Notes: a model not told the origin generated them from the sequence alone. 64,000 bases of DNA from Parcubacteria group bacterium (GCA_016188775.1 JACPHC010000010.1:31333-95332); one strand, 5' to 3'. Shown: positions 18,917-63,737, counted from the stretch's first letter. Translations and numbers: made by a program.

Positions 18917-19062
18917 GTCTACTTCATGCTCTAATAATAATTTTTAATTATTTTTTTTATTTTGTTATAATATTTCAAGCATTTACTTGCTATCGCTTAT
19001 AAATGCTAAAATGGATAGTTTATAGTTTTAAGTTTAAAAATTATTAATCTATTTTAAAATCT

Positions 19063-19623
19063 ATGTCTTTTGGTCCAGGAGTTGTGCAACGGAAAATTTT
19101 ACTTCTACTTTTAGGCGGGTTATCTCTTAGTTTTTCCAGATCGCCGCGGCAATATTTTAGTATTCTTAAAGAAATAAGAAAAAAGTGGAAAAAAATAAAT
19201 CAGCAATCCTTGCAGCGAGCAATAAGAAGTTTATACAAGAATCGTCTCATCACTGAAAAATATAATCGTGACGGAACAATTACGCTTGCGCTTTCCGATG
19301 CCGGCCGTAAGCGCGCTTTGATTTTTAACCTAAATGAAATGTCAATCAAGAAACCGAAGACGTGGGATAAAAAATGGAGAATTATTTTGTTTGATATCCC
19401 TGAAAATAGAAAAAAAATACGGGAAGCTTTACGTTTTCATCTTCAACGTTTAGGTTTTAGACAATTGCAGAAAAGCGTTTTTGTTTATCCTTATCCTTGC
19501 GATGATGAGGTGGATTTTCTTATTGAATTTTATCAAATTAAATCTTTTGTCAGAAAAATGTTCGCTGTTTCGATTGATAATGAATTGTATTTTAAACAAA
19601 AGTTTTCTCTTTTTAATAGTTAG
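19063..19623 (+). CDS. PaaX-family-like transcriptional regulator, short form (winged HTH plus PaaX middle domain, no C-terminal domain)
   Basis: N-terminal wHTH-like region (…LALSDAGRKRA, compare PaaX YSLSDKG); WDKKWRIILFDIPENRKKIREALRFHLQRLGFRQLQKSVFVY resembles the PaaX WDGKWLLLL…GFG core and is Cas2-fold-like. Confidence 0.5.
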   Translation: MSFGPGVVQRKILLLLLGGLSLSFSRSPRQYFSILKEIRKKWKKINQQSLQRAIRSLYKNRLITEKYNRDGTITLALSDAGRKRALIFNLNEMSIKKPKTWDKKWRIILFDIPENRKKIREALRFHLQRLGFRQLQKSVFVYPYPCDDEVDFLIEFYQIKSFVRKMFAVSIDNELYFKQKFSLFNS

Positions 19624-19781
19624 TTGGCTAATTAGAATAGCAATTTGATTAGTTAATAACTACATTATAGATTTTATTTTTAGCACTTAATCGCGATAGC
19701 AAGTAAGTGCTAAAAATAGTTAATTTAGCTAGTAAAGATAATTAAACTAATACTTGATTTTATTTAATTAAATTTTTAATC

Positions 19782-21206
19782 TTGTCTAATATGTCTAAAT
19801 CTCGGATTTTTTTAATTTGGCTTCTTTGTTTTATTGCCGGAATTTTTTTCGCTTCTTATATCAGTTGGCCGAAATTATTTTTAATATTTTTATCCATTGT
19901 CTCTTCGGCGGTTATTCTGGTTTTTAGAAAAGAAAAAATTATTTTTATTTTTGCGGGCGGAATTTTGATTTTTAGCCTCGGATTTTTAAGAATCGCGGGA
20001 ATCGCGGAGAAAAAATCGACGCTTGATCAATATTTAGATAAAAAAATTATTAGCCGAGGAATAGTAATGGCCGAGCCAAAAACAAAAGGAGAATCAACCA
20101 GTTTTCTTTTGGAAATTAGGGGAGAAAAAATTCAAATCAGAACCCGAAATTATCCGATTATCAATTATGGCGACGAATTAGAAGTTCAGGGCCAGCTTAA
20201 ATCGGTTCAAAATTCCGCTATCCGCTACGCTCTCAATTGGCCCAAAATTGAAATTCAAAAAAAAGATCAAGGGAATTTTTTCAAATCCAGTCTTTTTAAA
20301 TTAAAAGAAAAATTCAGCCAAAATATTTCTCAAAATATGCCCGAACCCGAAGCCTCGCTGCTGGCCGGCTATATTTTCGGCTCCCGAAATCTTCCTTCGG
20401 ATGTCGAGCAAAATTTTAAAACCCTCGGCCTTTCCCATATCGTCGCGGTTTCCGGTTTTAATTTAAGCGTTATCGCGCTTTTTATCAGTCAAATTTTTAC
20501 TTATTTTAATTGGCCTCGTTTTTTGAAATTTTGGAGCGCCGTTTCCATTATTTTTCTTTTTGTTTTAATGATCGGTTTTCCGTCTTCGGCCATGCGGGCC
20601 GCGATTATGGCTATTTTAGTTTTAGTGGCGGAAAAAGAAGGCCGCTTGTACGAATCCGCTCATGCCATAATTTTTGCCGGCGCTCTGATGCTTTTATTGG
20701 ATCCTTTAATTTTGCGTTTTGACCTGGGGTTTTCTTTGTCGTTCTTAGCGACTTTGGGGCTGATTTTTCTCTCGCCGATTTTACCGAAATATCTGCCTCA
20801 ACTCGTTTCCCAGACTTTGGCCGCCCAAATTTTTGTTTTACCGGTTCTGCTTTTAAATTTCGGCGTCGTCTCTCCCTACAGTTTATTGGTTAATTTTTTG
20901 ATTTTGCCCTTGGTGCCTCTGGCCATGCTTTTAGGATTTTTAGCCGGCCTGACTGGTTTTATTTTTCAAATTTTGGCCGAAATTATCAGTTGGCTGGCTT
21001 GGCCGATTTTATTTTATCAAATTAAAATCGCTCAATTTTTTTCTTTTTTCCCTTACGCCAAGATTAATTTCGGAAAAATCAGTTTGATTTTCGCCTTTAT
21101 TTATTACGCGGCGATTGGATTTATTATTTTTAAAAATAGAAATAAAGTACCCACTTCCACTTGCGGCGCTGATGTTTTGTTGGGGCATAATAAGCAGGTA
21201 TCCTAA
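19782..21206 (+). CDS. comEC: ComEC/Rec2 DNA-uptake channel, membrane part (DUF4131 + competence domain)
   Basis: Polytopic membrane protein; competence-domain motif LSHIVAVSGFNLSVIALF; the stop codon lies inside a family A repeat. Confidence 0.75.
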   Translation: MSNMSKSRIFLIWLLCFIAGIFFASYISWPKLFLIFLSIVSSAVILVFRKEKIIFIFAGGILIFSLGFLRIAGIAEKKSTLDQYLDKKIISRGIVMAEPKTKGESTSFLLEIRGEKIQIRTRNYPIINYGDELEVQGQLKSVQNSAIRYALNWPKIEIQKKDQGNFFKSSLFKLKEKFSQNISQNMPEPEASLLAGYIFGSRNLPSDVEQNFKTLGLSHIVAVSGFNLSVIALFISQIFTYFNWPRFLKFWSAVSIIFLFVLMIGFPSSAMRAAIMAILVLVAEKEGRLYESAHAIIFAGALMLLLDPLILRFDLGFSLSFLATLGLIFLSPILPKYLPQLVSQTLAAQIFVLPVLLLNFGVVSPYSLLVNFLILPLVPLAMLLGFLAGLTGFIFQILAEIISWLAWPILFYQIKIAQFFSFFPYAKINFGKISLIFAFIYYAAIGFIIFKNRNKVPTSTCGADVLLGHNKQVS

Positions 21207-24544: not shown

Positions 24545-26992
24545 ATGTATCAATACCTTTTTTGGCATTACACCGGCGGCATCAAAGGATTTATTGAAAT
24601 TTGGGGCAATTTCATCGAGTTTTTTTGGAATTATTTTTCCATTAAATTGCTTTCCAAAACGCTTTTCGCTCATTGGCATCGGGATATTTCCAAAAGAGGC
24701 CGAGCTTTTCGTTTTGGAGATTTTTTCCAAACCTTGGCTTTTAACGTTCTTAGCCGAATTATCGGCGCCGTTGTTAGATTAGTTGTTATTTTTGTCGGCC
24801 TGTTTTTTGTCATTTTAGCGATGATACTCGGTTTTCTTTTTTTCATAGTCTGGCTGTTTTTACCCGTTTTTATCATCGGCTGTTTGATTCTGGCTTTTGT
24901 TTTATTAAAAAATAATAATGTTTTCGGCAGTTTATCGTTTTTTGTTTTCGCCGCCTTCGCCGCTTTTTTACCCTGGCGTTTTTATTTAATCGCCTCGGAA
25001 AAAACTCCTTCGGAGCTGACCGAAGAAGAAATTTTGAAATCTTCGTTATTTAATTTGATTTTGCAAAGAGCCGGTATTGATCCGAAAATCGTTGGAAAAA
25101 TAAACGCGGGGAATATTAAGGCGGTTTTGGAAGAACATAATATTGCCGAAGAAGATTTTAACGAGATTATAAGTTGGGTTTTTCGAGAATATTATAAAAA
25201 AAGAGAAGCGAGCCGATTTTGGACCAAAGAAAATTTGGCGCGTCGTCGCGGCCTTGGCAAAAATTGGGCTTACGGATACACGATTAATCTTGATAAATTT
25301 TCCAAAGACTTAGGCGAGTTCGGGGCGGGAAAATTGAAGACAGAGCTTATTGGCCGGGACGAAGACATAGAAATAATCGAGAGAATTCTTTCCCGGGCCG
25401 AGGAAAACAATATTTTGATGATTGGCGAGCCGGGCGCGGGAAGAAAAATGGTTATCCAGGGATTGGCTAATTTAGTTTATGAGGGTATGGTTTTGCCGCC
25501 GCTCAAACACAAAAGAATTTTGGAAATAAATCTTGAAGCGTTAATAGCCAGCGCCGGAGCCGACGGGAATCTCGAGAGTCAATTGGCGCTGGTATTCAAC
25601 GAAGCCGTTGGAGCCGGCAATATTATTTTAGTTATCAATGATTTTCATAATTTCGTGGGCGCGGCTTCCGGAGTCGGCAAAATGGATATTTCCAGTTTTT
25701 TGACGCCGTATCTTTCTTCAAAAAATATTCAGATTATCGGCATTACCGATTATAAAGGGCTTCACCGTAACATGGAGGCTAACCCCGGACTTTTGATGTA
25801 TTTTGAAAAAGTTGAAATCAAAGAACCGGATGAAAAAACTTCAATGCTTATTTTGGAAGATATAGTCGGCCGTTTTGAAAAAAGGAGCAATGTTTTGGTA
25901 ACTTATCCGGCCTTGAAAGAAATAGTCAAACAATCCGCTCGTTATTTAAGCGCCGTTCCTATGCCTGAGCGAGCCATTGATTTGTTGGATGAGTCTATGG
26001 TTTATGCCGCGACCAAAACGGACGACCGGTTTTTAAAAATTGAACATATAGATAAAATTCTTTCAGAGAAAACAAAAATACCAATCGGCGAAGTCGGCAA
26101 AAGCGAAAAAGAAAAATTATCTCAATTGGAAAAAATTTTGCATCAAAGAGTGATTGATCAAGAAGAGGCGATTGTGGCTATTTCTCGGGCGATGAGAAGA
26201 TCGCGTTTGGGCGTTGGGGAGACGAAAAAACCCATTGGGACTTTTCTTTTTCTCGGGCCGACCGGCGTTGGCAAGACCGAGACCGCCAAAGCCTTGAGCG
26301 AAGCTTATTTCGGTTCCGAAGAACGAATGGTCCGTTTTGATATGTCCGAATATCAAAATACCGCTGACATCGCTCGATTAATCGGCTCTCCGGAGGGCGA
26401 ACCCGGAGTTTTAACGACCCGAATCAAGGAAAATCCTTTTTCATTGGTTTTGCTCGATGAACTTGAAAAAGCGCACCCGAATATTTTAAATCTTTTTCTT
26501 CAAGTTTTGGATGAAGGATTTTTAACCGACGCTTGGGGCCGAAAGGTGAATTTTCGGAATACTATCATTATCGCCACTTCCAACGCCGGAGCGGAGTTTA
26601 TCAGGGAAATGATTGAGAAAAATATTAACCCGGTCAAAGAAAAAGAAAAATTAATGGACTTTTTGCAGATGAATTCTCTTTTTAAGCCGGAATTTTTGAA
26701 CCGTTTTGACGAGATTGTTATTTTTCACGCTCTATCAAAAGAAAATCTTGTCAAAATCGCGATTCTGCTTTTGCGAAATTTAGCCAAAAGATTGGCGGAA
26801 CAAAAAATTACTTTATCAATAACTCCGGCCTTGGCCGAACGGGTCGCCGAATTGGGCTATAGTCCGGAATACGGCGCCCGGCCAATGAAGCGAGTGATTC
26901 AGGATAGAGTGGAAGATTTGATTTCAAGAAAATTATTGGACGGATCGCTCAAAAAGGGCGACACTTTGGAAATAAAACCGGAGGAAATTTGA
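24545..26992 (+). CDS. Clp/Hsp100-family double-ring AAA+ ATPase with N-terminal transmembrane domain in place of the Clp_N domain
   Basis: N-terminal ~170 aa with several hydrophobic helices; D1 (IGRDEDIEIIERILSR…GEPGAGRK); D2 (GPTGVGKTETAKALS…SNAG); no IGF/IGL ClpP-docking tripeptide seen. Confidence 0.75.
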   Translation: MYQYLFWHYTGGIKGFIEIWGNFIEFFWNYFSIKLLSKTLFAHWHRDISKRGRAFRFGDFFQTLAFNVLSRIIGAVVRLVVIFVGLFFVILAMILGFLFFIVWLFLPVFIIGCLILAFVLLKNNNVFGSLSFFVFAAFAAFLPWRFYLIASEKTPSELTEEEILKSSLFNLILQRAGIDPKIVGKINAGNIKAVLEEHNIAEEDFNEIISWVFREYYKKREASRFWTKENLARRRGLGKNWAYGYTINLDKFSKDLGEFGAGKLKTELIGRDEDIEIIERILSRAEENNILMIGEPGAGRKMVIQGLANLVYEGMVLPPLKHKRILEINLEALIASAGADGNLESQLALVFNEAVGAGNIILVINDFHNFVGAASGVGKMDISSFLTPYLSSKNIQIIGITDYKGLHRNMEANPGLLMYFEKVEIKEPDEKTSMLILEDIVGRFEKRSNVLVTYPALKEIVKQSARYLSAVPMPERAIDLLDESMVYAATKTDDRFLKIEHIDKILSEKTKIPIGEVGKSEKEKLSQLEKILHQRVIDQEEAIVAISRAMRRSRLGVGETKKPIGTFLFLGPTGVGKTETAKALSEAYFGSEERMVRFDMSEYQNTADIARLIGSPEGEPGVLTTRIKENPFSLVLLDELEKAHPNILNLFLQVLDEGFLTDAWGRKVNFRNTIIIATSNAGAEFIREMIEKNINPVKEKEKLMDFLQMNSLFKPEFLNRFDEIVIFHALSKENLVKIAILLLRNLAKRLAEQKITLSITPALAERVAELGYSPEYGARPMKRVIQDRVEDLISRKLLDGSLKKGDTLEIKPEEI

Positions 26993-27348
26993 TGGTCGCG
27001 ATTACTGAACGAAGCTCGAACCTTTTTCGAGCGAAAATCGCTCGAATGATTTGAAACCCCACCCCAGCGTTTCCGCCCGCCGAAACTCGGCGAGCAAAGC
27101 AAAACAATTTTCTTTTCAATTCTTTAATTTTTCGCGCGACCTTTTTTCTTTTAAAAGGAATTGAAAATTGTTTTGCTTTGATGTCTTGATACCAAGACGG
27201 CGGAAACTCTTCCCACCCCATTGCGCTTACGGCGCAGAACAGGCGGGCAAAAATTCCTTCCCCCCAACCCCCTTCCTTTTTGCCCGCCCGCTGGAAACTC
27301 CCAGCGGATTTTTCGGGCGGCGGGCCCTCAAATTGAGTGGTGGGTGGA

Positions 27349-28791
27349 TTATGTTGATTTTGGGATTAGGTTTTCCGCAACTTTCCTGCCAAGATATGAT
27401 AGCATTTTTCCTTCCTCTTCAAAACTTGTAGCGTCTGCCCAGATTAAATTCGCAATTTTTTGTCCCACCACGACTTCCCACGGTTTTGCGCTACCTATTA
27501 TGCCCATTAGATCATTTCGTACTTCTTTAATATCGTAATTTTTTCTATTGTACCCATCTTCTTTAAATCCGTTCATTACGAAAAAATGCGCATGTTGTGA
27601 ATTTGCTTTAAGCCAAGTTTCAATTCGTTGTTTTAATTCATCCCAAGTAACACTTAACGCCTCCAGAACATCATCAGAGAGCAAAAGATTTTCAGCGTTT
27701 CTACAAGATAATTTCATTCTGACTATCGGCAATAAATCGTCAATTGTTTCCTCGCCATCATCCCTATCTCTCAAAGAGTATCCTTTGGCGTTATCGTAAA
27801 CGGTCTGAACAATCTTTTGCGTCTCTTGTTCAAAGTCATTTATGTTACTAACACTATCAACCGAACAAGGGTATATCTTGATTTTGCCGCCGGCTGACCG
27901 GACAGCTTGTTGCCAAATTCGTTCGTCGTCTTCACCCTCAACTAATAAAATTGGAGCTTCATTAAAGAAATTTGATAGTGGATGCGCTCCAAACACCGGC
28001 AAAACTTTTTTATAAACTTCCGAGATAACTTTAAAATCTAATTCTTTTTGGTCATATACCATAAATGCCAAATGTGTATCGGCGTAGGATTCTAAGGCTC
28101 CCAAAATGGCGGTGCTATGAGTAGCAATTACTACTTGAAAGTTATTTTCAGCAACCAATCCTTTCAAGAAGTGCATCAACCGTACCTGTAAATCTGGGTG
28201 CAAATGCACGTCCGGCTCATCAAGAAATAAGATATTTCCTTTATCCGCCAAACATTCTTTACCAAAGATCAGGCACTCAATTCCCAAAGAAATAAGCTCA
28301 CTTTCGCCACTACTAATTGCGTTCGCGTCTAATTTATTCGTTGTTCCTTTTCGATATATCTCAAATGTCGTTTCGTGTCTTTTTATTTCGATATTGTCCA
28401 GCAAAGAGTTAATTTTATTGACGTAGATATCAAAGGTATAATCATTTTGTTGTCTTTTCTCTTTTTCAATTTCTCTCAAAACCAAGGTCTCAAGTTTACG
28501 ATATTGAGCAACGCTTTGCTGCCTAAATCCTGTTGCCTGATTTCGTCTTCTTTGGCCCGAAAGCCAATTTATATCATTTGTCAGACTTTGTTCAACCCCA
28601 GCCTCATAAATTAGCGCACCGCCTCTTTCCGGTGTGATATATTTCGTTTTGTCATAAGTTCCAGTTTGTGAGGAAAGACCTTGCTCAACCAGCCGAAGCA
28701 TTGTGCTCTTACCAGAGCCGTTCTTACCCAAAACGATATTTATTTTGTTTATGTTTTTTAGCGTATAACCGCTAACATTTGAAATATCCAT
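27349..28791 (-). CDS. OLD-family (overcoming lysogenization defect) nuclease: ABC-type ATPase + Toprim
   Basis: Walker A GKNGSGKST; Walker B/H-loop ILFLDEPDVHLHP; C-terminal Toprim-like LLVEGEDDERI … RDRDDGEE. Confidence 0.65.
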   Translation of the reverse strand: MDISNVSGYTLKNINKINIVLGKNGSGKSTMLRLVEQGLSSQTGTYDKTKYITPERGGALIYEAGVEQSLTNDINWLSGQRRRNQATGFRQQSVAQYRKLETLVLREIEKEKRQQNDYTFDIYVNKINSLLDNIEIKRHETTFEIYRKGTTNKLDANAISSGESELISLGIECLIFGKECLADKGNILFLDEPDVHLHPDLQVRLMHFLKGLVAENNFQVVIATHSTAILGALESYADTHLAFMVYDQKELDFKVISEVYKKVLPVFGAHPLSNFFNEAPILLVEGEDDERIWQQAVRSAGGKIKIYPCSVDSVSNINDFEQETQKIVQTVYDNAKGYSLRDRDDGEETIDDLLPIVRMKLSCRNAENLLLSDDVLEALSVTWDELKQRIETWLKANSQHAHFFVMNGFKEDGYNRKNYDIKEVRNDLMGIIGSAKPWEVVVGQKIANLIWADATSFEEEGKMLSYLGRKVAENLIPKST

Positions 28792-28793
28792 AG

Positions 28794-29249
28794 TTATTTA
28801 ATAGCTTTAAGAATCTTATCAGTAACGATTTTGCTTTCAGACTTTATCTGATGCTCCCAAAATCGCAATACGATCCAACCATTTTTTCGCAGATAAGTCG
28901 TAGTTTTTCTGTCTCGTTTGCGATTGTTTTCTATCTTTTCCCGCCAAAAATCGTTCTTTAGCAAATGCTTCCAGCGTGGGCAATACCAACCGTGCCAGAA
29001 ATTACTATCAAGAAAAATACATACCTTATCTTTTTGAAAAACTATATCTGGTTTTCCCTTGATTGACACAACATTCGCTTGGAATTTTTTGTGAGTAGCT
29101 TTCCCCAAAGAAACTATGAATTCTCGCTCGAATTTTGTGTCTCTGGAACGGATTTTTGCCATTAATTCCGACCGCTTTTTTGTCGGGAGTAAGTCGTCGC
29201 TCCGTTCTTTTTTGAAGTTTCTATTTAGATAGTTTTTCGTCTTTTTCAT
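28794..29249 (-). CDS. vsr: very short patch repair endonuclease
   Basis: DTKFEREF…DIVFQKDKVCIFLDSNFWHGW: Vsr signature. Confidence 0.85.
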   Translation of the reverse strand: MKKTKNYLNRNFKKERSDDLLPTKKRSELMAKIRSRDTKFEREFIVSLGKATHKKFQANVVSIKGKPDIVFQKDKVCIFLDSNFWHGWYCPRWKHLLKNDFWREKIENNRKRDRKTTTYLRKNGWIVLRFWEHQIKSESKIVTDKILKAIK

Positions 29250-30286
29250 AGAAGTCCAGCGTCAAAAATATCGGAAGCTTTGACGCCGGACTTAACGAGG
29301 GAAAATTTATCGTTCAAGAGTTTTTTCCACTGCTTCAAGCGATCACTTTCCAATTTTTCGCTTCTCCAATAGTAAGCGATGGTTTTGGCGTCCATCTCCT
29401 TGATTTTTCTTTCAATCGCTTTCGCTCTAACTTGCAAGCGATAAGCCAGTTGTGGCACTACGACATTTTTGCCTTTCACTTTTAATTTAATTTGACCGCC
29501 AGCCGTGAACAAATCTCGCAAGTTTGCGGATACGGCGTTGTATTCGGCGATAAGATAGGCGGCCGCACGCTCAAACTTTGTCGAGCTGTTACCAAACATT
29601 TCAGGAAACAGAATCATCGCTTCAACCACGAAATTTTCTTTTTCTTTGTCGCTCAAACCTCTGAAAGGCTTAATGATAGGACTAACCGCTTTTCCGTCTC
29701 CGTCTTGATCTATCCACCACAATTCCTCACCCTCTTTTAGTTGTGAGCGATAATAATCCTTGATTTTTTGAATTGGGTTAGTGTCATTCCGTAGCGTGTC
29801 ATAATCAATTCCAATCTTATCGAAAATTGATTTACCTGAAGGCAAATCCATGTTTATTCGATAGCGGGGAGAATGGGTAACGCTAATTTCTGGCAGACAT
29901 TCTTGGTAGAGTCGGTAGCGAACATCCAACTCACCGCCGAATTTTCCAAATACGATATAAATTCTTTCAACATCTTCAATACGTGAAGATTCAAGAACGC
30001 TGTTTCCGGTTGATGTCCAATGATCGTTCGCCGTCATTTTAACTTCAACGCCAAAGTATTTGTTGGCGATGATGTCTGGAAAAGCGTGCGTTCCCGTTTG
30101 TTTAACTGTTCCTTCGAAAGTCGTGCCTTTCGCCGCTTCACGAATTTGCTCAAAAACTATCGTTTCAAAATAAGTCGGCGAGATATTTTTCTTGCCACTC
30201 AAAAAGACCAGCATTAACCCCCTTGATTTTTCAAGCAAGGCGATAAAGTCTTTTTCTTTGGCGTTGGGTTTCGCGACGTAAATCAT
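29246..30286 (-). CDS. type II restriction endonuclease candidate (PD-(D/E)xK)
   Basis: FPDIIANKYFGVEVKM contains PD…(E)VK; flanked by dcm upstream and vsr downstream with 4-bp overlaps. Confidence 0.5.
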   Translation of the reverse strand: MIYVAKPNAKEKDFIALLEKSRGLMLVFLSGKKNISPTYFETIVFEQIREAAKGTTFEGTVKQTGTHAFPDIIANKYFGVEVKMTANDHWTSTGNSVLESSRIEDVERIYIVFGKFGGELDVRYRLYQECLPEISVTHSPRYRINMDLPSGKSIFDKIGIDYDTLRNDTNPIQKIKDYYRSQLKEGEELWWIDQDGDGKAVSPIIKPFRGLSDKEKENFVVEAMILFPEMFGNSSTKFERAAAYLIAEYNAVSANLRDLFTAGGQIKLKVKGKNVVVPQLAYRLQVRAKAIERKIKEMDAKTIAYYWRSEKLESDRLKQWKKLLNDKFSLVKSGVKASDIFDAGLL

Positions 30287-30288
30287 AG

Positions 30289-31260
30289 TTATTTCAAATT
30301 TTTATCTAAAAACTTTTCAATCGCCGTGGCGACATGCCAAGCTAAAACAGGCGGCACGGCGTTGCCAATCTGCTTATAAGCCGAGGAAGTGGACGGATAA
30401 AACACAAAATCGTCTGGAAAAGATTGAATCCGTGCCGCCTCTCTCGCCGACAATCTCCTTTTTCCGTTCCAATGATACTCTATGTTTCCGTGGTGTTCCG
30501 TTCGCATTGTTGGCCCCGGCTTATCCGCCGAGACGACCGAATTCCCTTGCCCGTTATTCTTTTTTGCCTTTGACCAGTAGTGATTGGCGATATTCCCTTC
30601 CTCCGCTTTCTCTAAATCGCCAATTGCTTGTTTTAAGCTAACCCAGCTTTTTTCGTCCAAAATCGGTTTTGGATGTTCAAAAGGAGGAAGTTTGTCTTTT
30701 CTTGTTCCAACAATAATAACTCTCTCTCGTGTTTGCGGCACTCCGTAATCAGCGGCCGTGAGTAATTTATAAACGACATGGTATCCCAATTTTTCAAAAT
30801 CCTTAATAATCGTTTGTATCGCTTCACCGCCGTTCATTGTGAGAAGTCCTCGGACATTTTCAGCGACAAATAAAACAGGTTTAGTTCTCTTGATAACTTC
30901 CGCCATGCTTTGATAAAGCAATCCTCGTTTACTATTAAATCCTTTTCTCTTTCCGGCATGGCTAAAATCTTGACAAGGAAAGCCGCCAAGCACTATATCC
31001 ACTTTTTGCGGGATTGGTTTTTCAAAAAAGCCCGAATTGTGTTTGCCGTCAAGAATTTTTCCGATATCGCCGCAAACTATATCGTGCTTAAAGTATTTTC
31101 TAAAGGTGGCACAGGCGGCCTCGTCAATATCGTTCGCCCAAGCAATCTCAAAGTTTCTTTTCGCGTATTTTTTGCCTAAAAATTCAAAATCGCCGACGAA
31201 GCCAAGATCGAGGCCACCGCAGCCCGCAAAAAGTGAAATTATGGAAAATTGTTTCTTCAT
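30289..31260 (-). CDS. dcm: DNA (cytosine-5)-methyltransferase
   Basis: Motif I FAGCGGLDLGF; motif IV GFPCQDFS; motif VI ENVRGL. Confidence 0.9.
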   Translation of the reverse strand: MKKQFSIISLFAGCGGLDLGFVGDFEFLGKKYAKRNFEIAWANDIDEAACATFRKYFKHDIVCGDIGKILDGKHNSGFFEKPIPQKVDIVLGGFPCQDFSHAGKRKGFNSKRGLLYQSMAEVIKRTKPVLFVAENVRGLLTMNGGEAIQTIIKDFEKLGYHVVYKLLTAADYGVPQTRERVIIVGTRKDKLPPFEHPKPILDEKSWVSLKQAIGDLEKAEEGNIANHYWSKAKKNNGQGNSVVSADKPGPTMRTEHHGNIEYHWNGKRRLSAREAARIQSFPDDFVFYPSTSSAYKQIGNAVPPVLAWHVATAIEKFLDKNLK

Positions 31261-31262
31261 AC

Positions 31263-31358
31263 TTTTACTTGATTAAATCATCAACACCAACATCCAACGC
31301 TTTGGCAATCTTGATTAGTGTTTCAATTGTATGGGTTAAAAAGTATTTTTTTACTTTC
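31263..31358 (-). pseudogene. remnant of an XRE-type HTH regulator (possible RM controller-protein fragment)
   Basis: Minus-strand 31-aa ORF MKVKKYFLTHTIETLIKIAKALDVGVDDLIK resembles the C-terminal half of an HTH_3 domain; too short to be functional. Confidence 0.3.
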
Positions 31359-31520
31359 ATCAATTACAATGATAACAAATTTCAAAACACTTATCTAAAC
31401 AAAAACGGAGTTTTTACTTGTTGCGCGCGCACGGGAAGGGTGGGGCAAACGCAACTATTCAACTCAACGCGCGAGCGAAGCGAGCGCGTACCTTCTTCCG
31501 AAAACTCTCAATACCTAACT

Positions 31521-31594
31521 TGGTCGGACCACCCGGAATCGAACCGGGGCTATACCCACCCCAAGGGTACGGACTGCCACTATCCGATGGTCCG
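31521..31594 (-). tRNA. tRNA-Pro (anticodon GGG), CCA encoded
   Basis: Folds by hand into a cloverleaf: acceptor CGGACCA/TGGTCCG, D-loop AGTGGCA, anticodon stem TACCC/GGGTA with loop TTGGGGT, T-arm CCCGG-TTCGATT-CCGGG, 3' ACCA. Confidence 0.8.
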
Positions 31595-31625
31595 ATGAAA
31601 AAATAGACCCTATGGAGTGTAGGAT

Positions 31626-31874
31626 CTAATTTTTGAGAGATTTTTTGATTTTTTCCAGGCTCATTTTTCCTTGAGCGATTGTTTTTCTGCAGTTGGAACA
31701 GGTTTTAATCCTTTTGATTGTTTTTTTACCAATCGTCAAGGCCGACGGCAAGGCGACCCATTGAAGATTAGGGTATTTTCTTTTGCGGCTTGTTGGATTA
31801 TACTTGCCTCGAAGGAGTTGACGATGAGTGACCATCGTCGAGCTCTTTTTGCAAGTTGGACAAATGTTTGCCAT
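31626..31874 (-). CDS. rpmB: ribosomal protein L28
   Basis: MANICPTCKKSSTMVTHRQLLRGKYNPTSRKRKYPNLQWV: L28 pattern. Confidence 0.75.
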   Translation of the reverse strand: MANICPTCKKSSTMVTHRQLLRGKYNPTSRKRKYPNLQWVALPSALTIGKKTIKRIKTCSNCRKTIAQGKMSLEKIKKSLKN

Positions 31875-31991: not shown

Positions 31992-32675
31992 ATGAATTTT
32001 TTTATGGCCGATTTATTCGACACAATTAGAATTTTCATCATTCAAATTGTTTTTTTGATTTTTTCCGTGATGGTTCACGAAGTTTTTCACGGCCTGTCCG
32101 CTCATTGGATGGGAGACGAGACGGCTAAAATGGAAGGCCGTTTGACTCTCAATCCCTTAAAACACTTGGATCCGTTCGGTTCGATAATTTTGCCTTTGAT
32201 CTTGGGATTGGCCGCGCTTTTTGGGGCCGGCGGAATTATTTTCGGCTGGGCCAAGCCCGTGCCTTATAATCCCAATAATTTAAAATATAAAAAATACGGG
32301 CCTTCTTTAGTGGCCTTGGCCGGGCCAATGGCTAATTTTTTAATAGCCGTGTCGGCCGGCCTTTTAATCAGATTTTTTTTAAGTTCCAATTTTTCCCCCG
32401 CTTATTTTAATTTTTTAAGCGATTTTGTCAGCATCATCGCTTTCGTGGTTTTTATAAATTTACTGTTGGGAATTTTTAATCTTTTGCCGATTCCGCCGCT
32501 GGACGGCTCAAAACTTCTTTTTGCCGTTTTGCCGTCCAAGTTTGACGAGTTAAAAATTTCTCTCGAGCAATATGGTTTTATAATACTGCTTCTCTTTTTA
32601 TTTATCGGATTTCAAATCATTATTCCGCCGATTCTTTTTCTTTTTCGAATTATTACCGGCCAGCCTTTTATTTAA
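31992..32675 (+). CDS. membrane zinc metalloprotease, site-2-protease/M50-like
   Basis: HEVFH (HExxH) in the first TM region; polytopic membrane protein. Confidence 0.5.
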   Translation: MNFFMADLFDTIRIFIIQIVFLIFSVMVHEVFHGLSAHWMGDETAKMEGRLTLNPLKHLDPFGSIILPLILGLAALFGAGGIIFGWAKPVPYNPNNLKYKKYGPSLVALAGPMANFLIAVSAGLLIRFFLSSNFSPAYFNFLSDFVSIIAFVVFINLLLGIFNLLPIPPLDGSKLLFAVLPSKFDELKISLEQYGFIILLLFLFIGFQIIIPPILFLFRIITGQPFI

Positions 32676-60772: not shown

Positions 60773-61210
60773 ATGTTATTGAGGGTGCTTTTTTATATGA
60801 TTATTCATGAAAAATTAATTATCTATACCGACGGCGGAGCCCGGGGCAATCCCGGACCGGCGGCTCTGGGCGCGGTGGTTCAAACCGCTGAAGGGAAATT
60901 GGTAAAAACTTATTCGGAGTATTTGGGAGAAAAAACTAATAATCAGGCCGAATACGAGGCGCTGATTTTCGCTCTGCGGAAAGTCAAGATATACAAGCCC
61001 AAAGAAATTACCTGTTTTTTAGACAGCGAGTTGGTGGTCAAGCAACTAAACGCCGAATATAAAATTAAAGACCCGGATCTTGGGCCGCTTTTTATTAAAG
61101 TTTGGAATTTAAAACTGGATTTTGAAAAAGTGATTTTTAATCATATTTCGCGCGAAAAAAACAAAGAAGCGGATAAATTGGTTAATCAAAAATTAGATCA
61201 GAAAATATAA
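60773..61210 (+). CDS. rnhA: ribonuclease HI
   Basis: IYTDGGARGNPGPAALGAV…NNQAEYEALIFAL. Confidence 0.85.
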   Translation: MLLRVLFYMIIHEKLIIYTDGGARGNPGPAALGAVVQTAEGKLVKTYSEYLGEKTNNQAEYEALIFALRKVKIYKPKEITCFLDSELVVKQLNAEYKIKDPDLGPLFIKVWNLKLDFEKVIFNHISREKNKEADKLVNQKLDQKI

Positions 61211-61306
61211 AATGTCGCCGCATATTATTCTTCAAATTTTTTTACATATTTTTAAACGATCGTTTGAAAAGAAGAAGGGATTTTAAAAAAATAAAGGATT
61301 TAAAAT

Positions 61307-61350
61307 TTTCACTACAATCAACTCACGATCGTGAGTTGATTGTAGTGAAA
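61307..61350. repeat. perfect palindrome, family C copy 2 (TTCACTACAAT-CAA-CTCACGATCGTGAG-TTG-ATTGTAGTGAA)
   Basis: Same outer and core sequence as 6821-6866 with the internal triplet swapped and compensated. Confidence 0.8.
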
Positions 61351-61441
61351 TAAATGAAATAGTGGAATAAAATAAAGCAAATTAATATTTGGGTCATGAT
61401 AAATTTTGATGTGGATAAGTAATATGGTATAATAATTATCT

Positions 61442-61756
61442 ATGGGAAAAATCAATTTAAAAGAATTAATCATTATTTTACTTTTAACTTCGTTTATTCT
61501 TTTTGTCGGCGTAGCCATTGGCTTGTCTGTTGGTTGGATCCAGGGCGATGCGATAGGATTGAAAGAAGGAATAGCTAAAGGTTTTGAACAGGGAAAATTG
61601 GAAGGCCAGGCGATTTTGCGCGCCGAGTTAAAGGCCGAGGCGGAAAAAGCGGCGGCCGAAGCGGCTAATCCTTTTAAAGAAACAACCGTTAATCCTTTTG
61701 AAAAAGCTATTACTAATCCTTTTGAAAATATCAAATTAAATCCCTTTGACCGGTAG
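61442..61756 (+). CDS. small membrane-anchored protein with 4x NPF(E/K/D) C-terminal repeats
   Basis: N-terminal TM helix; Ala/Glu-rich helix; NPFKE, NPFEK, NPFEN, NPFD repeats. Confidence 0.45.
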   Translation: MGKINLKELIIILLLTSFILFVGVAIGLSVGWIQGDAIGLKEGIAKGFEQGKLEGQAILRAELKAEAEKAAAEAANPFKETTVNPFEKAITNPFENIKLNPFDR

Positions 61757-61790
61757 GTCTGTTGCGTAATGGTTAGCAAAATTAATTGCT

Positions 61791-63737
61791 ATGAACGAGT
61801 TTAAAAAATATTTTTTCGTCTTTTTTTTAATTTTCGGGGTTTTATTTTTTTTGGGTGTTTTCACACCTGATTTTTTTGTCTTGGCTTCCTCTCCTTTTGA
61901 TATTACTTATCCGATTTCCGAGCTGTCTAGTTGCGCCACTCAAGACGAGTGTCGGGTTTATTGCGATAATTTGGCTAATAAAGACGTTTGTTTCGCTTTT
62001 GCTCAAAAGCACGGTTTTGTTTCCAAAGACGACGCGGAAAAGATTAAAAATTTGCCTTTGGTCGGTCCGGGCGGCTGTCAGGGCGAGAATCAGTGCCGAG
62101 AATTTTGCGGCAAATCGGAAAATCAAAATGAATGCTTTAATTTTGCCAAGACAAACGGCTTGATTTCTCAGGATGAAATTCGGCGTTTTGAAAAATTTAA
62201 CAAAATTAAAGGGCCGGCTGGCTGCCGCGGTTTTGAAGAATGCCATCAAGCTTGCGGCGATCCCCGGAATGCTCGGGCTTGTTTGGAAATTTCCAGAAAA
62301 GAAGGACTGATTGAAGAAAAAGAGTTCGGACTTTTAGAAGATGTTTTGGAAAAAGGCGGCCCGGGGGGGTGTTTGGGTCCGGAAGAGTGTCAGATCTATT
62401 GCCAAGATTCAAATCATCTCGCCGAATGCGTTAATTTTGCCAAAGAACATCATTTTATATCCGAAGCAGAAGCGGCCAAAATTCAGGCTTTGCCTCAAAT
62501 CGGTCCGGGCGGTTGTCAAGGGGAGGTTTGCCGAACTTATTGCCAAGTTCCGGCTCATCAGACGGAATGTATAAATTTTGCCGTGGAAAATGGATTTATG
62601 TCTGAAGAAGAAGCTCTCCATGCGAGAAAAGCCATGGAAGCGATGCGGGCCGGCGGACCCGGAGGATGTTCGGGCCCGGATGAATGCCGAGTTTATTGCG
62701 AAAATCCGGACAATTTTGAAGCATGCGCTGGATTTGGAGAAAAAAATGGTTTGGTAAACAAAGAAGACATTAGGCGCGGTCGGGAATTTTCAAGAACTAT
62801 TCGAGAGAAAGGCGGCCCCGGCGGTTGCCATAAGCCTGAAGAATGCCGAGTTTATTGCGAAAATCTGGATCACGGAGATGAATGTTTTGAGTTTGGAAAG
62901 AAACAGGGGCTTATTCGCGAAGAAGATATTAAAAATTTTGAACGCGGAAAAGAGATCCGGAAAAAAGTAATGGAAACCGGCGGCCCCGGCGGATGCAAAT
63001 CCGATAATGAGTGCCGCTCTTATTGCCAAGATTCTTCTCGTGCCGAAGAGTGTCTCGCTTTCGCGGTTGAGCATGGCGGAATTCCTCCCGAAGACGCCAA
63101 AATGATGCTCGAAAATTTTGTCCGTGAAACTCATCGGCCGGAATTCGGTCCTCCGTCGAGAGATTTTGAAAAATTTGAGCAGGAAAAATTTAGAAGATTT
63201 GATGAATTTCGAGGATTAGAACGTCAATTTCGACAAGGTCCGGCGACTCAATTTCAAGGCGGTCCGGGCGGTTGTTTGAGTCCGGAAGAATGCATCAAAT
63301 TTTGTTCCGATCCGGCCAATCGCGATACTTGCGCTCATTTTGGTCCGCCTTCCGGAGGTCCGCCGTCAGGAGAAATATTTAAACAAGTTCCTTCCGGTTC
63401 TGAATCCGAATTTAGAAATATTGAGCCGTTTATACTGCCCAAAAATACGCCTTATCCGCGAATGATGCCGCCAACCGAGGTCGCTTCTCCTTTTTCCCCG
63501 GATTTAATAAATCCTCAATATCCGCAATACGCGCCTCGGCAATTTGGCCCCGGCGGTTGCGCTTCAGAGGCTGAATGCAAAGCTTACTGTTCGGATCCGG
63601 CGCGCGCCACTGAATGCGGAATTTATGTTCCGCCTTCGATAACTCCAGAGTTAAAAAATTCTTCCTCGCCTCAAAGCGGTTTTCTAAGATTTTTATCCGC
63701 GATGTTAGGCGTTATTTTGCCCGGATTTAGATATTAA
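61791..63737 (+). CDS. secreted/membrane-anchored cysteine-rich modular repeat protein (~10 modules GPGGC-x4-EC-x2-YC-x7-EC-x2-FA…G[LF]I…EE)
   Basis: N-terminal signal/TM (FFVFFLIFGVLFFLGVF); ~48-aa modules with 4 Cys each; Pro-rich C-terminal region and a hydrophobic C-terminus (FLRFLSAMLGVILPGF). Confidence 0.6.
   Translation: MNEFKKYFFVFFLIFGVLFFLGVFTPDFFVLASSPFDITYPISELSSCATQDECRVYCDNLANKDVCFAFAQKHGFVSKDDAEKIKNLPLVGPGGCQGENQCREFCGKSENQNECFNFAKTNGLISQDEIRRFEKFNKIKGPAGCRGFEECHQACGDPRNARACLEISRKEGLIEEKEFGLLEDVLEKGGPGGCLGPEECQIYCQDSNHLAECVNFAKEHHFISEAEAAKIQALPQIGPGGCQGEVCRTYCQVPAHQTECINFAVENGFMSEEEALHARKAMEAMRAGGPGGCSGPDECRVYCENPDNFEACAGFGEKNGLVNKEDIRRGREFSRTIREKGGPGGCHKPEECRVYCENLDHGDECFEFGKKQGLIREEDIKNFERGKEIRKKVMETGGPGGCKSDNECRSYCQDSSRAEECLAFAVEHGGIPPEDAKMMLENFVRETHRPEFGPPSRDFEKFEQEKFRRFDEFRGLERQFRQGPATQFQGGPGGCLSPEECIKFCSDPANRDTCAHFGPPSGGPPSGEIFKQVPSGSESEFRNIEPFILPKNTPYPRMMPPTEVASPFSPDLINPQYPQYAPRQFGPGGCASEAECKAYCSDPARATECGIYVPPSITPELKNSSSPQSGFLRFLSAMLGVILPGFRY

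Follow-up and report, generated by a model that had tools for sequence, protein, structure and literature searches.

Here, we report that positions 26993-31460 of a 64,000-nucleotide stretch of DNA from a Parcubacteria group bacterium (GCA_016188775.1, JACPHC010000010.1:31333-95332; this whole stretch is called the window below) probably form a horizontally spread, partly decayed defense cassette located 3' of a tRNA-Pro(GGG) gene, in which an ABC ATPase would act, by analogy with PARIS and PrrC, as a guardian of restriction-modification (RM). We give this reading a probability of roughly 0.55. The gene block of the cassette is on the minus strand (27349-31260) and consists, according to the open reading frame (ORF) list of the window, of four tightly packed ORFs. 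These encode a C5-cytosine DNA methyltransferase (30289-31260, 323 aa), a type II restriction endonuclease (REase) of the EcoRV-like branch of the PD-(D/E)xK nucleases (29246-30286, 346 aa), a Vsr very-short-patch repair endonuclease (28794-29249, 151 aa), and a compact single-chain PARIS-like (AriAB-like) protein, in which the ABC ATPase is joined to a predicted Toprim-like domain (27349-28791, 480 aa). An original prediction for this stretch had described the block as a methyltransferase, a PD-(D/E)xK endonuclease, Vsr, and an ATPase/Toprim-type protein, and both the ORF list and the profile matches agree with it. The methyltransferase and REase genes are separated by a 2-nt gap, the REase and Vsr genes overlap by 4 nt, and another 2-nt gap lies between the Vsr and ATPase genes. 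The tRNA-Pro(GGG) gene (31521-31594, minus strand, CCA encoded) was identified by ARAGORN and by Rfam (tRNA, 53.6 bits), and its 3' end points at the gene block, as had been predicted. Also in line with the prediction, there is no integrase in the block, because 26993-31520 contains no additional ORF of useful size; the gene content of the related cassettes likewise included no integrase.

In the mechanism that we propose, the ATPase-Toprim protein would be inactive until a phage anti-restriction factor or a failure of restriction is sensed; the activated Toprim nuclease would then cut an essential nucleic acid (tRNA in the case of PARIS) and the infection would be aborted.

The compact ATPase and its position in RM operons

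The ABC ATPase domain of the 480-aa protein covers residues 1 to ~255 (Walker A 21-29, signature 159-166, Walker B 191-196). The protein scores 59.5 bits with AAA_15 and 61.9 bits with AAA_21, both above the Pfam thresholds of 32 and 27 bits, respectively, which are the rule used in PMC9122126. The C-terminal domain contains three motifs, i.e., LLVEGEDDE (with E285), SLRDxD (D342xD344), and CRxAENL (363-369). Among 67 homologues (50-100% identity), conservation of E285 reaches at least 95%, and D342 and D344 never vary; Walker A, the signature, Walker B, the H-loop, and all three C-terminal motifs are invariant or nearly so.

The top PADLOC match of the whole protein is the fused AriAB model (PDLC02981, 1.1e-26, 91.7 bits), in an alignment that covers residues 150-378, from the ATPase into the Toprim part, and about one-third of the 694-position profile. 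When the C-terminal domain is isolated, its scores are weak (DUF4435, PF14491, 15.4-15.8 bits, E 0.012-0.016; AriAB, 1e-4; AriB, 2e-3). Across the 67 homologous C-terminal domains, PADLOC AriB is matched by 55, AriAB by 43, Pfam DUF4435 by 41 (best 4e-6), and OLD-like_TOPRIM by one. The latter family, the OLD-type Toprim PF20469, does not match the window protein with an E limit of 10, and its only match among the family members is at E 0.042. An OLD-type nuclease domain was considered and rejected since the family signal of the C-terminal domain is AriB/DUF4435; because of this, the "OLD family" assignment of the original prediction is right only in the broad sense of an ABC ATPase plus Toprim protein. 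Three distant members of the family behave similarly, all of them having AriAB or AriA within their top four PADLOC matches and scoring 51-71 bits with the AriAB model: the rank is first in the CPR2 homologue, second in the L088 homologue, and second to fourth in the E. coli homologue, whose best match is PDC-M01A. The family is discrete: at E<=1e-30, a search of 1.84 billion representatives gave 272 clusters, almost all with lengths of 470-500 aa. The identical protein occurs in the sequencing runs SRR12113420-24. Judged from these profile matches, the 480-aa protein is a compact single-chain relative of PARIS (AriAB) with a predicted Toprim-like domain of the DUF4435/AriB type.

Our survey of the ATPase covered 80 metagenomic loci with homologues, and gene neighbors were counted in 53 non-redundant loci. 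In these 53 loci, the ATPase is usually the terminal gene of an operon: the upstream neighbor is co-oriented in 47 and lies within 30 nt in 26, compared with five loci in which the downstream neighbor is that close. The genes upstream of it are rich in RM components of various types. Type I HsdS (7/53) and N6_N4 methyltransferases (4/53) are found as immediate upstream neighbors, together with Eco57I/MmeI-type, GmrSD, ResIII/HsdR, and BsuBI/PstI proteins, and some loci have the ATPase gene within a type I operon, downstream of hsdS. We consider a compact AriAB-like family that is linked to RM operons in different phyla to be new, if modestly so. The second-line role suggested by the original prediction is plausible for a PARIS-like family that ends RM operons of several types.

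A conserved downstream partner was also considered, as genes of 215-237 aa follow the homologues in L004 and L010; it was rejected, as all-against-all clustering of the neighbors yielded no recurrent downstream family. A search of a phage collection with the ATPase returned weak partial matches only. One E. coli homologue (L182, NZ_CP062824.1 4404241-4405710) is a lone 489-aa protein with 34% identity, located beside an insertion sequence (IS) fragment and annotated only as "AAA family ATPase"; its best PADLOC matches are PDC-M01A, AriA, and AriAB.

A tRNA-Pro cassette with exchangeable cargo

Related contigs have a frame in common with the window, composed of tRNA-Pro, a promoter-bearing leader, a small helix-turn-helix (HTH) gene, the cargo, the ATPase, and a structured element. 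The cassette is beside tRNA-Pro, in the orientation of the window, in L012 (GGG), L013 (CGG, abutting the inverted repeat), and L174 (GGG); in L172, tRNA-Pro(GGG) is beside an inverted cassette and the ATPase end therefore faces the tRNA. The distal flanks differ in all contigs (Clp in the window, other genes in L012, L013, L172, and L174), and so does the cargo, which upholds the earlier claim of horizontal acquisition. We regard this modular Parcubacteria cassette at tRNA-Pro, flanked by inverted repeats and equipped with a conserved structured element, as new.

The conserved non-coding leader (31326-31460, minus strand) was delineated by blastn homology, a promoter scan, and alignment. It has homologues at L013:2325-2458 (87%), L017:183-244, and L172:2976-3037, and the 60 nt separating it from the tRNA (31461-31520) are without homologues. 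The sigma-70-like promoter detected by the scan at 31397-31369 consists of a -35 TAGATA, 17 nt, and a TG-extended -10 TATCAT, and both boxes are conserved in the alignment. Intact HTH_XRE genes of 71 aa are found at L013:2484-2699, L017:270-485, and L172:3063-3278 (Pfam HTH_3, 4.6e-12). Reading of the sequence and alignment to these intact copies indicated that a clean 179-nt deletion in the window took a second TATAAT box and ~48 codons, so that just the last 31 HTH codons are retained (31262-31357, minus strand; MKVKKYFLTHTIETLIKIAKALDVGVDDLIK); the HTH gene of L012 was truncated independently. Loss of the HTH gene would leave the operon under the retained upstream promoter.

The cargo slot extends from the HTH stop codon to the ATPase start codon. 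DNA homology between cassettes stops a few bases from the start of the first cargo gene and begins again 3-9 nt upstream of the ATPase start. The slot is occupied by Dcm-REase-Vsr in the window, by an M.BsuBI/PstI-like methyltransferase and R.BsuBI/PstI in L012, by a RadC-D12 methyltransferase, R.AlwI, and an N4/N6 methyltransferase in both L013 and L172, by a split methyltransferase and R.HinfI in L174, and by a D12 methyltransferase with REase_II proteins in L017. Different relatives thus hold different complete type II RM systems in one slot, i.e., the cargo is swapped, and the exchange probably occurs via homologous recombination in the conserved arms of the frame.

At the other end of the cassette, a structured, GC-rich, non-coding element of 356 nt (26993-27348, minus strand) runs to 1 nt past the Clp stop codon, where the cassette ends with the terminal sequence ...GTTCAGTAATCGCGACCA. 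Its GC is 0.50, compared with 0.414 for the window, and it folds far better than shuffled sequences (z -7.7 on the plus strand, -5.8 on the minus strand). The original prediction of a GC-rich, hairpin-dense flank is correct in this respect but not in the boundary role given to it, since the element travels with the ATPase gene. Copies located by blastn straight after the ATPase stop codon are 90% (L017), 77% (L012), and 81% (L172) identical, and in L017 this 90% compares with 75% for the ATPase gene itself; partial copies are present in L013, L016, L173, and L020. The only Rfam match was the tRNA, i.e., no family was found for the element with the whole window searched at gathering thresholds and the two intergenic regions with an E limit of 10. 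The core of the element has no exact match in IMG/VR (0 hits), and a covariance model of its first 144 nt found copies in the cassette subclade only. From its copies, we read the element as part of the cassette and not as host flank or boundary.

The four full copies gave 92 consensus pairs with compensatory changes at eight of them. The core of the element is a hairpin, CAGGCGGGCAAAAA-GGAAGGGGGTTGGGGGGAAGGAA-TTTTTGCCCGCCTG, in which CAGGCGGGCAAAAA and TTTTTGCCCGCCTG are the stem arms around a G-rich loop of 23 nt, and it is almost invariant among the copies that contain it. The most conserved piece is 27230-27280 (minus strand, CAGGCGGGCAAAAAGGAAGGGGGTTGGGGGGAAGGAATTTTTGCCCGCCTG), with a 14-bp stem and the 23-nt G-tract loop; this segment is nearly identical in the six loci carrying it, whose ATPase genes are just 75-80% identical. 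This piece may form a G-quadruplex or be a protein-binding site.

A second, inverted copy of the element is located at the opposite end of the cassette in L172 (195 nt at 91%, longer by the covariance-model search), L013 (46 nt at 87%), L174, and L017 (83 nt at 100%, at the contig end and possibly an artefact). The window has lost this copy on its tRNA side. The inverted copies probably permit inversion of the cassette. In L172 (2477-2492 and 9513-9535), the inverted repeat reaches the tRNA, and a 16-nt inverted copy of the tRNA-Pro 3' end plus 6 nt (GGCAGCCCGACTTCAT) is seen at the far end of the cassette. In L174, the structured element is cut short after ~40 nt; a type I HsdR gene in four ORF fragments (L174:11674-13797) is located straight after its ATPase gene.

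Competing explanations and known systems

Several observations weigh against a mobile cassette with a guardian ATPase, and some of them concern the mobility. The att-like direct repeat with the 3' half of tRNA-Pro, which the original prediction had anticipated, was not found beyond chance by repeat finding or local alignment (ungapped local score of 18 compared with 17.5 +/- 2 for shuffles). A gapped alignment did show an ordered TGGTCG..TCGAACC..CCCACCCCA resembling the 3' part of the tRNA at the exact cassette end; its score does not beat the controls, since 2.4% of control windows and 12% of shuffles attain it as well. As for the deviant composition expected of an island, the block is an outlier in tetranucleotide usage (distance of 0.246 versus 0.167 +/- 0.027, 2 of 121 windows being as deviant), but not in GC (0.401 for the block versus 0.414 for the window, 0.8 sd), which does not distinguish the block. 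The lack of an integrase and of an att repeat above chance, together with the ordinary GC, would also fit a lineage-specific variable locus beside tRNA-Pro at which homologous recombination with incoming DNA remodels the genes in place; the tRNA would then be a conserved landmark only, and the inverted structured repeats would be local terminators or insulators. The window and L172 having tRNA-Pro(GGG), a small zinc-ribbon gene, and an M50 protease in common points in this direction, as do the breaks of homology exactly at gene boundaries, which are expected from recombination in conserved arms. On the other hand, remodeling in place does not fit well with a distal flank that is different in every contig, with cassettes beside two tRNA-Pro isoacceptors (GGG and CGG) and in both orientations, with the outlying tetranucleotide usage, or with component genes that are 78-86% identical to genes in metagenome-assembled genomes (MAGs) assigned to other phyla. 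We consider this explanation possible, though on balance unlikely.

The remaining points against the guardian cassette concern the ATPase. The DUF4435 score of the window protein (15.8 bits) is lower than the 27-bit Pfam cutoff, a PDB profile search with the C-terminal domain retrieved no solved Toprim structure by sequence, and the AlphaFold 2 model is unreliable across the predicted Toprim core. The ATPase part is ~255 aa, compared with 464 aa for AriA, and the Ocr-sensing insertions of PARIS are largely gone. Family members without an RM neighbor exist in the CPR2 locus L007 and in E. coli, where 28 of 5426 complete genomes have the homologue, located between yfgI and guaA. Please note as well that the functional tie between the ATPase and restriction is drawn by analogy.

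The protein might instead be a self-contained DNA nuclease defense gene like OLD or Gabija, its clustering with RM genes reflecting accumulation in defense islands, with no coupling to restriction and no targeting of tRNA. Such autonomy would suit the members that stand alone in CPR2 and E. coli, the matches of the window protein to the PADLOC Old (2.8e-13), GajA, and ATPase-Toprim_I-B models, and the observation that the RM+Vsr unit exists without the ATPase while 80 other ATPase loci are without that RM unit. However, the Old and GajA matches are mainly over the ATPase part, and the C-terminal domains of the family favor AriB and DUF4435 over OLD-like_TOPRIM by the counts given above. Mere accumulation is also at odds with an ATPase gene that abuts RM genes as an operon end, 26 of the 47 co-oriented upstream genes being within 30 nt, and that in some loci is inside type I operons after hsdS. 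An autonomous nuclease is therefore doubtful to us. It is very improbable that the ATPase is a decaying passenger without present function, as the 179-nt deletion in the regulator gene, the lost tRNA-side inverted repeat, and the fragmented HsdR adjoining the L174 copy might suggest for the whole cassette, since the ATPase ORF is full length and keeps every residue that is invariant across the 67 homologues, the promoter-like site upstream is kept, and all three RM/Vsr genes are intact with family-typical lengths.

A bolder version of the guardian cassette can be put forward only tentatively, and we think it rather unlikely in full: the 470-500-aa family, with about 270 clusters at 50% identity, would be a restriction guardian of its own kind (PARIS-like, minimal, and single-chain) at the ends of RM operons, which anchors an invertible tRNA-Pro cassette with a functional structured element. 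Under this version, the family may be wired as the terminal gene of type I, II, IIG, and IV RM operons; the Parcubacteria cassette may be flanked by inverted repeats around a slot in which entire type II RM systems are exchanged; and the element may be a site of recombination or inversion, or an RNA that regulates or neutralizes the nuclease.

PARIS and PrrC are the two textbook restriction-guarding nucleases, both found in E. coli. PARIS consists of the ABC ATPase AriA and the DUF4435/Toprim nuclease AriB, and single-gene, "merged" AriAB clades have been published (Rousset et al. 2022, PMC9122126; Burman et al. 2024, PMC11464382); it cleaves tRNA-Lys and serves as an anti-anti-restriction system that works by abortive infection (PMC9122126, PMC11464382). 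PrrC is an established latent nuclease guarding restriction, and the concept of an "RM guardian" that groups it with PARIS was named in a review (PMC12707154). The window protein resembles PARIS in joining an AAA_15/AAA_21 ABC ATPase and a DUF4435-type Toprim-like domain, here in one chain, and the genomic link of its family to RM fits the role of PARIS as an anti-restriction sensor. It differs in its length (480 aa versus the 694-position AriAB model and 464 aa for AriA alone), with far shorter ATPase insertions, in its DUF4435 score below the Pfam cutoff, and in location, the family usually being last in an RM operon whereas PARIS is cargo of P4-like satellites. With PrrC (type Ic RM locus EcoprrI), it shares an ABC-type NTPase fused to a nuclease domain and a gene inside or ending an RM operon, as in the seven of 53 loci with the ATPase after hsdS. 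In contrast to the anticodon nuclease (ACNase) domain of PrrC, the nuclease domain of the window protein is Toprim-like; no sequence relationship was detected beyond the P-loop, and the partner is a type II system in the window and its closest relatives, compared with type I for PrrC.

OLD-family proteins (P2 Old, class 1/2 OLD, Gabija GajA, and the retron Eco8 effector) have the same arrangement of an N-terminal ABC ATPase and a C-terminal Toprim-type part with E and DxD as metal ligands, and the ATPase region of the window protein matches the Old, GajA, and Eco8 models. Unlike them, the family matches PF20469 in only one of 67 members, the window protein not being that one, and the cassette in the window has no UvrD/GajB-like or retron partner. 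The location at a tRNA 3' end and the foreign-looking oligonucleotide usage are as in tRNA-linked islands; the lack of an integrase and of a significant direct repeat is not, and the relatives are bounded by long inverted structured repeats. Intact copies are headed by a small HTH_XRE gene, like RM cassettes controlled by C proteins, except that here the HTH gene is located ahead of the methyltransferase and, in the window, is truncated.

If the analogy holds, the family would be a candidate third restriction-guarding nuclease, present in several phyla including the genome-reduced Patescibacteria. In-cis guardianship would then be a general design, and a single protein of only 480 aa would be a small model for sensing the failure of restriction without the large AriA scaffold. 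The cassette has the regulator and promoter on one side and the putative guardian and structured repeat on the other, with interchangeable RM systems between them. It shows how a putative second-line defense can be retained while one restriction specificity is exchanged for another, which bears on the diversification of immunity in the tiny genomes of candidate phyla radiation (CPR) bacteria.

The RM-Vsr unit and neighboring genes

The methyltransferase was identified by PF00145 DNA_methylase (2.5e-80), TIGR00675 (4.1e-77), and PADLOC MTase_II (5.6e-103), and M.HaeIII is its nearest solved relative in a PDB search (7e-44). Its translation carries FAGCGG, GFPCQDFS, ENV, QTRERV, and GNAVPP, including the catalytic PCQ and ENV motifs. 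The 346-aa endonuclease has no Pfam family and matches a PADLOC type II REase model (5.7e-46); P70-D71...E81-x-K83 is invariant across 39 homologues (59-96% identity). Vsr scores 100.2 bits with TIGR00632 (cutoff 97.85) and 58.6 bits with PF03852 (cutoff 27; 5.8e-16), and also matches PADLOC Vsr (1.7e-18). Deamination of 5-methylcytosine creates T:G mismatches, which Vsr repairs. All three genes are intact and of lengths typical of their families. Palindrome avoidance across the 64-kb window gave no clear candidate for the recognition site (GGCC 0.85, CCGG 1.01, GCGC 0.87). On the coding strand, AAATAACTATG is read at both 2-nt junctions, as noticed by repeat finding (28789-28799, Vsr/ATPase; 30284-30294, Dcm/REase); this may be chance or a common design of stop codon, ribosome-binding site, and start codon.

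Taken by itself, the RM+Vsr unit is ordinary. The Klebsiella plasmid pINF177.2 carries the same triad of REase, Dcm, and Vsr, with 31% identity in the REase, and like other type II m5C RM systems with Vsr it has the same three families adjacent, with nothing essential different. Dcm-REase-Vsr without the ATPase is found in one Omnitrophica and one Azambacteria MAG (REase identity 85-86%), and another patescibacterium has the RM unit but no Vsr. Homologues of Dcm, REase, and Vsr were found in none of the 80 other metagenomic ATPase loci; therefore, the RM+Vsr unit and the ATPase are separable modules, and the pairing of the ATPase with exactly this unit is unique to this lineage.

On the distal side, the cassette is flanked by a Clp/ClpB-like AAA+ protein (24545-26992, plus strand), in which a long hydrophobic N-terminal region (~residues 60-150) replaces the Clp N domain. 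Its nearest relatives in a protein database search are 59% identical and not syntenic, with PolX/NUDIX downstream in two neighbor look-ups; when GTDB genomes were scanned with this protein, identity did not exceed 50% and the gene order was not shared. In two Yanofskybacteria contigs, tRNA-Ala and tRNA-Pro(CGG) come after Clp, without the island. None of these relatives is close enough to provide an empty site between Clp and tRNA-Pro. Two genes upstream of a 58%-identical Clp relative (L180:627-2025), there is a bAvd and reverse transcriptase pair, i.e., a diversity-generating-retroelement pair, with a Memo/AMMECR1 gene between.

Near tRNA-Pro(GGG), the window has a small zinc-ribbon gene (31626-31874, minus strand) and an M50 protease gene (31992-32675, plus strand), and the same pair is found at L172:9616-10519. 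The zinc-ribbon protein looks bL28-like by eye; Pfam gave a weak NrdR-ribbon match only. The 1-kb stretches of the window with the lowest GC are 19001-20000 (0.296) and 61001-62000 (0.332), compared with 0.41, and they may be further foreign or non-coding DNA.

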